DNA from: Octopus sinensis
Lineage: Eukaryota
DNA length: 64,000 bases
NCBI RefSeq assembly: GCF_006345805.1
Contig: NC_043009.1
Span: 43,400,001-43,464,000 of the forward strand
Direction of reading: 5' to 3'
The position numbers and the translations under genes were made by a program. Positions 2,442-28,771 of this stretch are shown here, in pieces (position 1 is the first letter of the stretch; each line of letters starts with the position of its first letter). Below the pieces are notes generated by a model. The model was not told the origin of the DNA. It saw nothing but the letters and a program-made list of their open reading frames with translations, and made no database searches.

Positions 2442-3195
2442 TGTGTATATTTTATTATAAATATAAAATAACACCGCAGAGGAATCGATGTAAGCTTAAA
2501 TAACAAACTGCGATAGCTGAACCACGAAAGGTGAACTGCGATAGATGGACTTCAAAAGGTGAATCGCGATAGGTGAACCATGATATGGCAAGGAATTACT
2601 GTATTTCATTGTTGTCATTACCCTCATCATCAAAATCGTTTGCTTATGTTCAGTCTCATTGTCTATGCCATAATGTATAAGACACTCCAACAGGATCCAT
2701 CCCGTGGGTTGGAAAATCACATCTTGTTCCAGTGTCTCAGTTTTTACAGATTTCTACAGCCGGTTGCTCTTTCAATTACCAATCACTTTACAGACTGTAC
2801 TGGATACACTTCGTTTAAGGCATCACCAGCACAATAGAGGCTGCCTTGCCATCAGCAAGACTTCAAGAAATTTCTGCTGTCACTGCTCCAATTAATTACT
2901 AACCACTCCCAGAGTGTACTGGGTGCTTTCTGTGGCATCAGCACTGAGAAGGCATTAGAGAAAGAGTGTGATAGGGCAGTGTGGAGGGTTCAATAGGAGT
3001 AAATGCTGTTCTCCCCCACATTATATATGGGTGGGTGGTGTTGCATGTGAAGGAAAGAGAATATGGAAGGATGTAATAGGAGGAAAAAGTGGTTTCAGGT
3101 GATTAGTGAATGAGATTTACAGACGGATTAACAGGATGATGGAGGGTTGAGCAGAAAATGAAGTGCTACCTCTTAATACATTGTTTGGGTCAGTA

Positions 3196-3606
3196 AGTGT
3201 TATTTCCTATTTACTTCTAGAAATCAAAGGAAATGACTACTATTCCCTTCAAACTTTGCTTGTGTGGCCTAGGCATCCATGTCTTGAAACTGACATATTT
3301 TCCATTACATTTCAGATAGATCCAGCACTAAGTTGCTGAAGCAGAAATATCATTACAGTAAATATTCTGCTCAATACCACAGATTTGCTAGGCAGTTGTT
3401 TGACCTTAACCATTTGAGCATGTCCCTCAGTGGTTAACTATATGTGCATCTTTGATCATGAGCAGGTGTAGTTGGGGAGCATCGTAACCACATGTTGAAA
3501 GGAGGGATTCTTTGGGATTTGAATAAATGTAACAAAAGCAAAGTTTGAAGGAAATATTGACCATTTTTCATGCATTGTTAGAGGTAAGTAAATAGGAAAT
3601 AACAGT
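3196..3606. mobile_element. MITE-like element with ~70-bp terminal inverted repeats
   Basis: GTGTTATTTCCTATTTACTT...CTTCAAACTTTGCTT at the left versus AAGCAAAGTTTGAAG...GTAAATAGGAAATAACAG at the right. Confidence 0.65.
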
Positions 3607-3785
3607 TGCTACCCAAGGACAAAAATCTTGTTACACAGCATTACATAAGGGTGGGAAGAATGATGCATGGAAAAGTGATAAGATAATGATGAGGGACCAA
3701 GGCATTTTCTCAAGGTATCATGTCCACACTTGTGCCAATACACACACACACCACACACACACACATACACACACATACATATATT

Positions 3786-5464: not shown

Positions 5465-5682
5465 AGGAGGTGAGCTGGTAGAATCGTTAGCACTCCGACT
5501 GAAATGCTTAGCGGTATTTCGTCTGCCGCTATATTCTGAGTTCAAATTCCGCTGAGGTCAACTTTGCCTTTCATCTTTTCGGGGTCGATTAGATAAGTAC
5601 CAGTTACACACTAAGGGTCAATGTAATCAACTTAATCCCTTTGCCCAAATTTAGAGGCCTTGTGCTTCCTGTAGAAAGGATT
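5464..5682 (+). mobile_element. SINE family A (tRNA head, Meta-domain-like core)
   Basis: GAGCTGGTAGAATCGTTAG (A box), GAGTTCAAATTCC (B box), GCCTTTCATCTTTTCGGGGTCGAT...AGTACCAG core, (TTA)n tail. Confidence 0.85.
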
Positions 5683-5705
5683 ATTACTATTATTATTATT
5701 ATTAT

Positions 5706-6015
5706 TGAGTGAGAGAGCAGTGCATGCCATCAAAATGACACTGGGGTAAAATATACGAAGCCCAGTATACCCATCATGACTACCCATCTGATAAGGGTAC
5801 ACCAGGCACATGCATCACAACCATATGTGCACAACATGGTGATCCCATATCAAGATAAACAGCACATGACCTTGCAGGTGGGGGCCCAGTTAGAATTTTC
5901 TTCAGGTTGAGTAGCCCATCCCGCTCAAAAGGTCCCTGAATAAGGGTTGTTTAAGGATGTTGAAAGAACCACCCATGCTTCCATAGGTGAATTATTCAAA
6001 CCCCACAGAATCCCT

Positions 6016-6018
<3 letters not shown>
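5706..6018 (-). mobile_element. (TAA)n-tailed retroelement 3' end inserted in a TAA microsatellite
   Basis: Minus strand ends ...GCACTGCTCTCTCACTC-AATAATAAT, with TTA repeats on both flanks. A shorter copy lies at 28841-28931 (+), and an overlapping upstream part ends at about 3527. Confidence 0.7.
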
Positions 6019-6055
<37 letters not shown>

Positions 6056-6063
6056 GTAGTAGA

Positions 6064-6116
<53 letters not shown>

Positions 6117-6328
6117 AAGACGAACAGTGCAATTCGATTGTAAGATATTTTATTGAACGATATTTCAAAAGTATGTCTGTCTTTGTCAAGTTCAAAATAA
6201 GAAGTGATATCACTTTGAACTTGACAAAAACAGACTTACTGTTGAAATATTGTTCAATAAAATATCTTACAATCAAATCGCACTCTTCGTCTTGACTGTT
6301 TACCTTTGTGAAGAGTTACATCAATCCT
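6117..6328. mobile_element. Fold-back element FB2 with twin variant hammerhead motifs (U3:A8 core)
   Basis: ~80-bp inverted arms 6117-6196 and 6214-6293 plus a short tail. Each arm reads TTGAAC-TTGACAA-A-[stem II]-GAA-ATAT-Y-GTTCAA. Confidence 0.75.
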
Positions 6329-6337
6329 TTTTTAAAA

Positions 6338-6472
<135 letters not shown>

Positions 6473-6479
6473 TATTACT

Positions 6480-6885
6480 AAGGTGGGGAGCTGGCAGAAT
6501 CGTTAGCACGCTGGACAAAATGCTTATCAGTATTTTGCCCGGCGCTACATTCTGAGTTCAAATTCCGCCACGGTTGACTTTGCCATTCATCCTTTCAGGG
6601 TCGATAAAATAAGTACCAGTCAAACATTAGGGTCAATGTAATTGACAAATCCTCACCTCCCCGCAAGCTGTCCTTGTAGTAAAAATTTGAAATAACAATT
6701 ACTATTATTACTAAGGCAGCGAGCTGGCGGAATCGTTAATACACTGGACAAAATGTTTAGTGGTATTTCACCCATCACTATATAACGAAATCAAGTTCTG
6801 CCAAGGTCAACCAACTGGGGTTGACATAATTGACTAGACCCTCTCCCCCAAAATTTCAGGCCTTCAGCCTTCAGTTGAAAGGATT
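6480..6885 (+). mobile_element. Two tandem SINE family A copies (second internally deleted)
   Basis: GAGCTGGCAGAATCGTTAG heads at about 6488 and 6721, Meta-like core, TTA tails. Confidence 0.8.
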
Positions 6886-6924
6886 ATTATTATTATTGTT
6901 TTTATTCTTCTTTGGTCACTAAAC

Positions 6925-19635: not shown

Positions 19636-19868
19636 ATTGGTAAAAACGGTAAGATAACAAAAGAAAGAAAGATACCTTAATATTATGTAAATAGAGGAAA
19701 TTTATCTGTAAAATAATATGTGACAATTATTCAATAGCCAAGATAAAAGACCATCTCTTCGGTTATCAGGCCAGATAAGCGAAGAGATGGTGTTGTGGAT
19801 TTCCACTTCGGCGTCCGAAACTCAGAGTTTTATCTTGGCTATTGAATAATTGTCGCATATTATATTAC

Positions 19869-19873
<5 letters not shown>
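19636..19873. mobile_element. Fold-back element FB3 with a variant (C4-core) hammerhead-like motif
   Basis: Inverted arms 19703-19748 and 19828-19873, inner hairpin 19750-19791. Motif GATAA-GCGAAGA-[stem II]-GAA-ACTCAGAGT-T-TTATC at 19774-19834. Confidence 0.6.
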
Positions 19874-19916
<43 letters not shown>

Positions 19917-24262: not shown

Positions 24263-24595
24263 ACAATTGCAGCATGGAAGGTGTTGGTAAGCCATTTAGA
24301 AACACACAAAAGCCGTTCGATTCACTTCAACATTTAAGTTTAATTGTCAAGATATCTTCGTCGCTAAAATCCGCGACCTGTTCACTGACAAATGCAGCAC
24401 GGATTTTTGTCAGTGAACAGGTCGCGGATTTTAGCGACGAAAATATTTGACAAATTAAACTTAAATGTTGAAGTGAATCGAACGGCTTTCTGTGTGTTTC
24501 TTAAATGGCTTACAACACCTTCCACGCTGCAATTGTTTTCGTTTCAGCACACGATCTCAGATCAAATCACTTGCTATGCGAGTACATCTCCGTAA
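24263..24595. mobile_element. Fold-back element FB1 with twin variant hammerhead motifs (G3:C8 core)
   Basis: ~130-bp inverted arms (24263-24392 and 24406-24536) plus a ~60-nt tail, in (TA)n. Each arm reads TTTGTCA-GTGAACA-G-GTCGC-ggatttta-GCGAC-GAA-[palindrome]-TGACAA. Confidence 0.8.
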
Positions 24596-25973: not shown

Positions 25974-28297
25974 CTTTCTTTTTCTTCTTTCAAATTTGCT
26001 TCCATTTCTTGCCGAGTGTCTTCCCGACTCCTAGGGCAAAGAAACTCATAGTATACATTGGTAGGCCATTAAACCAAACTCAGTAGTTCGTTCATTTTTT
26101 TTTTTTCTCACATCGACAATGCTCTTCTCAATACGTGTGATGTACCAGTTAAGACAATCTTTTGCACTTCTTGCAGGGATGGTAAGCCAGGGATCATTCT
26201 CATATAATTTTCGGTTCCCTTCTTGATCATTCCTAGTGCTCCTACGATCACTGGTATTGTAACCGCCTTGAGATGCCACATTTTCTCAATTTCAATGAGT
26301 AGGTCTTTATATTTTCTGAGCTTGTCAAACTCTTTCGCTGAGATATTATGATCACAGGGGATGCTCATGTCGATCAATAAGCAAACTTTATTGTTTTGGT
26401 CTTTCACAACAATATCTGGTTTATTGGCCTTGATGGTTCGGTCTGTATGTACTGGAAAGTCCCACAGAATGGTTACATTTTCTCCTTCAGTTACAGCCTC
26501 AGGGTGGTGACTATACCACTTGTCGGCAGTTTTGATATTGTAATGCCGACTTATTAGCCAGTGGAGATATTGGCCAACTCTGTCATGTCTTAATTTATAC
26601 TCCACTGGTGCTAAGACTTTACATCCAGAGATTAGGTGGTCCACTGTTTCAATCATGTCGTTGCAGAATCGGCATTTTGGGTCTGCTCCATTTTTCATCA
26701 CATTGGCCTGGTAGTTCCGGGTTAATAGGCTTTGATCTTGAGCAGCCAGAATGAAACCTTCGCTCTCTGCTTTTAGCCCTGAGCTCCGCAGCCACTGAAG
26801 GGTTTGCTTCTGGTCAACATCAGCTTGTTTGCTGCGGGTCACATATTTGCCATGCAGAGGTTTCTCCTCCCACCTATCAGCCAATTGCTTGTGCGCTTTT
26901 TTCATTGCCATCATTTTCACCTTCTTTGCAAAAATAGTTGCCGTACTTCCCTCGGGTTGTTCAGTTTGGGTATCCTGCACGAGATCAATAGCTTCTTTCG
27001 TCTCTCGTGATTTTCCACGAGCTTTAGCATCCAGTCATTCGATATTTCGAGATATTTGGCCAGTCCAATTGTGGTTGTTTTGTAAGCTAGTTCAAATTGG
27101 ATCAGGCCTCGACCTCCTTGGGCTCTGGGAAGGTAAAGGCGATCTACATCTGCCTTTGGGTGGTGCATCCTATTACAACTCAGCAGCTTGCATATTTTTC
27201 TATCTATATTCTTTACTTCACTCATATTCCAGTTCAACACATTGTAGCTATAAGTAACAACTGGAACTGCTAAGGAATTTATAGCTAACAACTTGTTACG
27301 TGCATTTAGTTCAGATTTCAGGACTGCACGAACTCTCCTATAACATTCCTTCCTGATTTTCTCTTTCATGCTTGCATGCTGAATACCAGAGCCTTCATTT
27401 ATCCCTAAATATTTGTATGTTTGTTCTTGCTCAAGCTCTCTTATGACTGTGTCAACATCTAACACGACTGAATTTGTGGTCTTCACTTTCCCTTTCTGGA
27501 AAGTGGCCTTGGCACGCTTCTCAAGTCCAAACTCCATCCCGATGTCATCGCTGAATGCTTTCACAGTGCGCAATAGGCCTTCAAGTTCATTATTGTCTTT
27601 ACCATAAAGTTTTAAGTCATCCATATAAAATAGATGGCTTATTTTTTTATTGGCAATTTTATACCCATACCCTGTTCTGTTTAATTCACTTGTAAGGGGT
27701 ATTAGGGTTATGCAGAATATTAAAGGTGAAAGTGAGTCACCTTGAAAAATTCCACAGTTGATGTTATATTTTCTGAGGCAAGTACTCCATTGGAGTGGTA
27801 TAATTGGAGATTCGTATTCCACAACGACATATTGTGCTTCAGGAAGTTTGAAATTTTGAAGATGTCCAGCGATCTCAAGATCCATGGATGCAGTATACTG
27901 TCGAAGACCTTTTTGTAGTCAATCCATGCGGTGCTGAGATTTCTGCGCTTGTTGTGACAGTTCTCAAGGATCATACGATTGATTAGCAGTTGATCTTTGC
28001 ATCCGTAAGAGCCTCGGCGGCACCCTTTTTGTTCAATGGGGAAAATATCGTTCTTCTCCATGAATGCATATGTTTTCTCCGCCAGAATAGATGTTAGGAT
28101 TTTATACGTGGTGGATAGACAGGTTATAGGCCGATAGTTTTTTGGAAGGTTGGTTTCGTTATTCTTTGGGAGTAGGTAAGTAATGCTACTTGCTAACCAT
28201 TCAGGTGTTTTCTTTGGGTCTCTCATAATTCCATTGAGCAGCTGAACTAGCTTACCGTGTGCGCATGGGAGCGATGCGAGCCAGAAATTCGGCACCC
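25974..28297 (-). mobile_element. R4/Dong-clade non-LTR retrotransposon, 5'-truncated, inserted in (TAA)n
   Basis: RT + CCHC + restriction-like endonuclease coding region, ~130-nt 3' UTR, TAA repeats directly at both ends (25931-25973 and 28298-28357). Confidence 0.9.
26108..28295 (-). pseudogene. Frameshifted RT-RLE ORF of the Dong/R4 element
   Basis: Three overlapping ORFs: PKNYRPITCL...EQKGCRRGSYGCKDQL...WIDYKKVFDS; GIFQGDSLSP...HLFYMDDLKL...YKYLG; CRFCNDMIETVDHLISGC (CCHC), RHD, NKPDIVV...LIDMSIP...KLRKY (PD..D/ExK RLE). Confidence 0.92.
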
Positions 28298-28358
<61 letters not shown>

Positions 28359-28359
28359 G

Positions 28360-28577
28360 ATGGTGGCAAGCTGGCAGAATTGTTAGCATGCTGGATAAAA
28401 TGCTTAGTGGTATTTCAACCTTCACTACGTTATGAGTTCAAATCCCATCAAAGTTGATTTTGCCTTTCATCCTTTCAGGGTCGCTAAAATAAGTACCAGT
28501 TACATACTGGAGTCGATGTAATAAACTGTCCCCCCTCCCACAAAATTTCAGGCATTGTACCTATAATAGAAAGGATT
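28360..28577 (+). mobile_element. SINE family A
   Basis: GCAAGCTGGCAGAATTGTTAG head, Meta-like core, TTA tail. Confidence 0.85.
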
Positions 28578-28771
28578 ATTATTATTATTGTATTGCATTA
28601 TATTTTTGTTTTTTCAAAATGTTACAAAATTTGAGAAACAAAATAAAATTTCCCAAAATTTTTTTTGAATATTGATAGTGATGGAAAAAAAAATTAGGTT
28701 AATAGTTAATATTAATAATAATAATAAAAATAATAATATAATAATAATAATAATAATAATAATATAAAATA

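Follow-up and report, generated by a model that had tools for sequence, protein, structure and literature searches.

The hairpin-shaped repeat at positions 6113-6337 of the window, by which we mean the whole 64 kb stretch of DNA analysed here, is very probably the dead insertion stub of an endonuclease-bearing Penelope-like element (PLE). According to this reading, two 5'-truncated copies of the element's pLTR lie head to head within a microsatellite, one of them tailed, and each carries a minimal hammerhead motif with a U3:A8 pair. The assignment to the PLEs is read from non-coding signatures, and a non-autonomous derivative is retained as a rival. The new result, of modest significance, is that a PLE-type family present in many copies has U3:A8 fixed in its hammerhead core; the U3:A8 variant itself is already described, and the stub is a decaying copy of a described kind.

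Twin hammerhead motifs in an asymmetric fold-back

The inverted repeat consists of two 84-nt arms (6113-6196 and 6214-6297) which are 90% complementary, and including its tail the hairpin-shaped repeat comprises 225 bases (Table 1). The unit reaches from 6113 to about 6331-6337 and is thus slightly wider than the span of 6117-6328 in which a sequence-only reading had located the fold-back. The arms differ from each other at 8 of 84 positions, among them three CpG-type transitions and one change that breaks helix II. The flanking microsatellites allow no target-site duplication to be read, and on the left the adjoining repeat is (TAG)n rather than ATT; judged by the family contig ends and by the anole PLE, the right-hand tract at 6338-6478 is likely the target tract of the insertion. 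On the minus strand the left flank at 6064-6115 reads (ACT)n and carries on the triplet with which the element ends. It may have arisen by slippage from there, though mixed triplet tracts are common in this region.

Table 1. Parts of the fold-back unit, its flanks and its hammerhead motifs (window coordinates).
Feature	Position	Strand	Details or basis
Left flank microsatellites: (ATT)n, then (TAG)n	6018..6115	.	Sequence
Left arm: tail-less inverted copy of the element end, 5'-truncated	6113..6208	-	Outer end is the 6297 equivalent, where family contigs stop and pass into (ATT)n
Minimal type I hammerhead motif	6153..6195	-	U3 6189, A8 6184, extra A 6182, C17 6159; helix II damaged at 6169
Junction: perfect palindrome, 10 nt, head to head	6204..6213	.	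Directly after the palindrome the plus arm lacks 7 nt
Right arm: sense copy of the element end, 5'-truncated	6209..6297	+	Inverted-repeat comparison
Minimal type I hammerhead motif	6215..6257	+	Helix I 6215-6220/6252-6257, helix II 6229-6233/6239-6243
Core positions of the plus motif		+	U3 6221, A8 6226, extra A 6228, GAA 6244-6246, palindromic AUAU 6247-6250, N17 6251
One-sided tail, 34-40 nt (T/A run counted or not)	6298..6337	+	Family end points 6297 and 6331 plus AAAA, then ATT-type repeats
Right flank microsatellites: (TAT)n, (CAT)n, (TAT)n	6338..6478	.	Sequence

Both motifs had been read correctly to the letter, as TTGAAC-TTGACAA-A-AACAG-actta-CTGTT-GAA-ATAT-T-GTTCAA in the plus arm and TTGAAC-TTGACAA-A-GACAG-acata-CTTTT-GAA-ATAT-C-GTTCAA in the minus arm. 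Each of the two arms contains the core N3-UGA-N-N8-A9 together with GAAA..UH and a Watson-Crick 3:8 pair, which is U3:A8 in both; an extra base between positions 9 and 10.1 (6228 and 6182) and a self-complementary AUAU loop III are likewise common to both. The core UUGACAA had been called the other Watson-Crick swap at 3:8, a wording that needs correction, as U:A is one of three alternative pairs. Cleavage of the plus motif is predicted after 6251 (N17).

A type I descriptor admitting any Watson-Crick 3:8 pair was run over the whole 64 kb window and matched at three sites only, namely +6221, -6189 and +24413, the last in FB1, another fold-back family of the window. One hundred block-wise dinucleotide shuffles yielded a mean of 0.3 loose matches per 64 kb by chance; for strict matches (helix II of at least 5, helix I of at least 6) the mean over 100 shuffles was 0.01 per 64 kb. 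Folded alone, the plus arm adopts both helices, I and II, at z -2.72, a value matched by 2 of 200 shuffles. A C:U mismatch in helix II prevents this in the minus arm, where z is 0.39 and 122 of 200 shuffles do equally well. An Rfam search of 6198-6300 gave no hammerhead family among its three matches at E<=10, and over the window the best 150 of 335 Rfam matches were nearly all microsatellite-driven miRNA matches under the gathering score.

A multi-copy family with a constant U3:A8 core

Contigs resembling the element at 80% identity or more were obtained from 4 of 24 public runs, each of a different organism (A, B, C and D). The alignments comprised 826, 788, 401 and 700 contigs, and 401-826 contigs per run indicate a multi-copy family, whereby depth is not to be equated with copy number. 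In all four runs no other letter reached 3% at U3 (6189, 6221) or A8 (6184, 6226). The same holds for every other core position except N17, which is commonly C (32-80% at 6251). Consequently, U3:A8 is the state of the family. The sequence-only reading had named two findings that would overturn it, a CUGACGA core decayed identically in both arms and a consensus devoid of stem II or helix I pairing. CpG decay of CUGACGA as the origin of the core was rejected, as neither C3 nor G8 occurred at 3% or more, and the majority letter of the family restores helix II, so that the claim stands on both counts. This pairing letter at 6169 accounts for 96-98% of the depth in all four runs; therefore, the minus-arm mismatch is private to the copy at 6113-6337. 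The constancy of U3 and A8 at the 3% level does not show selection on the copies, because most non-CpG sites are equally quiet.

Loop II is variable (6174). On the minus arm the 10.1:11.1 pair is G:C in 5-25% of the depth and G:U in the remainder, and on the plus arm it is A:U; it is always paired and seldom canonical, a weak reading given that the contigs are short and each is placed on whichever arm it fits better. Directly behind helix I, 71-88% of the family depth has an insert of four bases that both arms of the fold-back lack. By eye, this insert may form a 2-nt bulge, whose second base is variable, followed by five further pairs with the upstream strand; if so, one can speculate, with considerable doubt, that such a bulged and extended helix I makes the ribozyme of this family more active than typical minimal ones. 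Both arms also carry a minority A at 6282/6128, where 87-95% of the family depth has G. The two minority states shared by the arms, A at this site and the missing insert, point to one template.

Two end points were found in the family. Position 6297 is the last one in at least 14 and at least 12 contigs of two runs, while at least 19, 24, 9 and 17 contigs of the four runs reach 6331 plus AAAA. Either end passes into ATT-type repeats. The minus arm stops at the equivalent of 6297 and the plus arm at the longer end, which leaves the tail on one side. Contigs running upstream past 6209 into AT-rich sequence numbered at least 41, 53, 29 and 30 in the four runs, and other copies of the element clearly extend further than the one at 6113-6337. 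At the centre of the fold-back the depth collapses, and the junction letter that the window has at 6213 is either missing from the family contigs or carried by a minority of them. A single contig, from one run, spans the centre, a count to be read with the fact that long palindromes assemble badly, so that the share of fold-backs among the copies may be under-counted.

A probable Penelope-like insertion and its alternatives

The unit displays an inverted 5'-truncated copy, a tail of 34-40 nt at one end and an AT-rich microsatellite setting. Craig et al. (2021; PMC8557442) describe PLE units with an inverted 5'-truncated copy, a one-sided tail of 30-40 bp and a bias for microsatellites. Endonuclease-bearing (EN+) units of Penelope/Poseidon, Neptune and Nematis (PMC8557442, PMC11167929) agree with the fold-back in 5' truncation, inverted copy, a 30-40 nt tail at one end, an ATT or microsatellite target and a hammerhead upstream of the ends. 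Unlike these units, the fold-back has no ORF left and no ATG near the ribozyme, and its PLE clade is not assignable. For the anole PLE it is reported that the tail corresponds to the interval from one RT start site to the other, that the commonest cut is 5'-ATT-3', and that the hammerhead requires protein for cleavage and is not required for insertion in vitro (PMC11167929). The repeat landscape suggests a coleoid cephalopod as host. For this lineage, Penelope-like and Dong-R4 families are listed (PMC13282606).

The following course of events is proposed. A PLE RT/GIY-YIG protein would have nicked an ATT-rich target, whereupon reverse transcription may have started at two internal RNA sites and produced a tailed and a tail-less end. 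Both cDNAs probably stopped just 5' of the ribozyme and would then have been joined at the 10-nt palindrome 6204-6213. In a tandem transcript of the parent element, two same-sense motifs would pair via AUAU to form helix III and would cleave after N17, probably slowly or with the help of protein, while the motifs at 6113-6337 would be inactive. Minimal hammerheads are described to act as same-sense dimers via a palindromic helix III (PMC4209133; PMC6765202). As the AUAU duplex of 4 bp is unstable when calculated by itself (+1.6 kcal/mol), the dimer model rests on this literature and not on the energy calculation.

A search for the RT/GIY-YIG partner ORF found none at the locus and no PLE ORF among the window ORFs of at least 120 aa, and peptide searches, which are weak searches in this case, returned empty or spurious matches. 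The open frame at 6208-6336 (43 codons) has no ATG, and a longer-protein search with it, a weak test, gave one candidate and no scored match. This frame was rejected as the start of an ORF, since it lacks an ATG and the 4-nt insert of the family shifts it. A metagenome scan with a 19-nt pattern returned 33 loci, none of which extends into helix II or GAAA, and these were treated as chance; a viral scan for the family gave no match.

The missing ORF bears on the best-surviving alternative, which we nevertheless regard as unlikely: a short non-autonomous hammerhead element, SINE-like or a non-LTR retrozyme, that depends on a PLE protein in trans and has no coding parent. Neither arm has an ATG after the motif, in contrast to the anole PLE, whose ORF starts at stem II (PMC11167929), and an ORF partner was not found in the searches. 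A 2026 preprint moreover links animal retrozymes to PLE pLTRs, from which they are proposed to derive; the non-LTR retrozymes described therein are also non-coding, PLE-related and equipped with a type I hammerhead (bioRxiv 10.64898/2026.07.22.740005). However, these retrozymes are head-to-tail tandems, whereas the copies at 6113-6337 lie head to head. A tail-to-head joint was not among the 13 joints listed, with the upstream part of the element lying outside the aligned stretch.

Far less probable is that the fold-back itself is a selected functional unit, either a host twin ribozyme or a hairpin-RNA gene. Both cores are intact, one contig spans the centre, and an RNA starting at the centre folds the plus-arm motif correctly with pair probabilities of 0.70-0.98. 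According to this folding model, only such centre-initiated RNA would fold the motif, and it would still require a partner. In read-through RNA the hairpin (-105.3 kcal/mol) is 42 kcal/mol more stable than the forced hammerhead fold (-62.9 kcal/mol), and the pair probability of helix I falls to about 1e-29. The two cores cannot cooperate, because they lie on opposite strands, which precludes dimerisation in cis, and because the read-through hairpin buries them. The fold-back is therefore very probably no functional twin ribozyme; the junction, too, is rare among family contigs. Furthermore, the arms differ at the positions given above, including the one that disrupts helix II, and the Rfam match to the miRNA family mir-6095 remains below threshold (40.5 bits against a gathering score of 100). 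The hammerhead motif probably took shape in the parent element and is simply carried along at 6113-6337. Selection likely acted on the parent pLTR and not on this decaying copy.

Least probable, and largely refuted, is a MITE or fold-back DNA transposon with a chance hammerhead-like motif in its terminal inverted repeats, which would suit the near-perfect, AT-rich, non-coding and multi-copy 84-nt arms but not the asymmetric one-sided tail, the two alternative 3' ends, the upstream continuation of most contigs, the variable centre with its collapsing depth and rare junction letter at 6213, or the strict motif that only 1 of 5000 plus-arm shuffles reproduced, since such transposons have symmetric fixed termini.

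Relation to described hammerheads and to FB1

Returning to the reading as a PLE stub, its ribozyme motif closely resembles hammerheads already known. Among PLE hammerheads, Cervera and de la Pena (2014; PMC4209133) describe the U3-A8 variant, with Schistosoma yielding about 1,300 hits; in their PLE min-HHRs loop 3 is palindromic and positions 9 and 10.1 are separated by an additional base, and hammerhead pairs occur on opposite strands about 100-700 bp apart. The S. mansoni Cercyon min-HHR of that study likewise combines a U3-A8 core with a palindromic minimal helix III and leaves one base unpaired between 9 and 10.1, and motifs of this type are, as here, single or arranged as close opposite-strand pairs tied to truncated PLEs. 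Differences concern helix II and helix I (5 and 6 bp here, 7-8 and 4-5 bp in Cercyon; PMC4209133) and the closing pair 10.1:11.1, which is mostly G:U or A:U instead of the G:C usual in min-HHRs. The family described here differs from Cercyon in sequence and is apparently undescribed; a literature search on hammerheads in coleoid cephalopods, judged by titles and the beginnings of abstracts, brought up nothing on it. Perreault et al. (2011; PMC3088659) found natural U3-A8 covariation compatible with activity. The motif in the octopus window shares this covariation, lacks a stable helix III and resides in an animal-type repeat.

The FB1 family was compared with the element at 6113-6337. The best local DNA score of 20 was reached by 112 of 1000 shuffles, and blastn gave no match. 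Shared ancestry at the DNA level is not supported, as the local similarity is not significant, and the observation that the two have the same architecture with no sequence similarity was borne out. The FB1 copies at 24263-24590 and 1068-1363 have (TA)n flanks, a tail of about 55 nt and different centres. Their core is G3:C8, with G3 in three of four arms and C8 in all four, an extra base after A9 and a G10.1:C11.1 pair. The FB1 sense arm at 24505-24594 (+) contains a stop followed by an ATG and 30 open codons up to the end of the tail, possibly the start of the parent ORF. Two protein matches of this frame, both to repeated bacterial Ig-like domains, were rejected as summed weak matches. A faint YN...LCE likeness was seen between the ATG frame of FB1 and the ATG-less frame at 6262-6336.

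It had further been argued that independent families sharing one design with different compensatory cores testify to selection on ribozyme structure. This holds in part: U3:A8 is family-wide, and the unrelated FB1 with its G3:C8 core shares the design. However, the design is the known PLE insertion signature, the U3:A8 covariation and the case for selection were published in 2011 and 2014, and selection can be inferred for the parent pLTR but not for the copy at 6113-6337. With a U3:A8 and a G3:C8 family side by side in the window, pairing at 3:8 persists although the bases differ, a finding in favour of catalytic selection on PLE ribozymes, even though insertion in vitro does not need them. 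Descriptors fixed on CUGANGA as well as Rfam models miss such families. One can speculate, with considerable doubt, that within a single animal lineage the abundant PLE families have become fixed for one or another non-canonical 3:8 pair, such as U:A in the present family and G:C in FB1, and so form a natural compensatory series missed by CUGANGA-only searches; if true, some PLE families called ribozyme-free may hold such cores. A natural G3:C8 family was not found in the literature searched, to which Lunse et al. on PLE hammerhead variants, which may list these cores, and supplements did not belong.

Other repeats were noticed in the window. At 26108-28300 (-) lies a non-LTR retrotransposon that is broken across three frames, matches RVT_1 and, weakly, zf-RVT, and ends at (ATT)n; its C-terminal part presumably resembles a restriction-like endonuclease of the R4/Dong type. 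Abundant short interspersed repeats at 5502-5706, 6465-6632, 6698-6909 and 28350-28580 begin directly after ATT/TAC microsatellites. A short fold-back at 19700-19876, with 49-nt arms (94%) and an inner hairpin, adjoins (TA)n and gave no hammerhead descriptor match. Finally, an old, MITE-like inverted pair (3185-3265 and 3532-3616) is 77% alike, its two parts being 266 nt apart.
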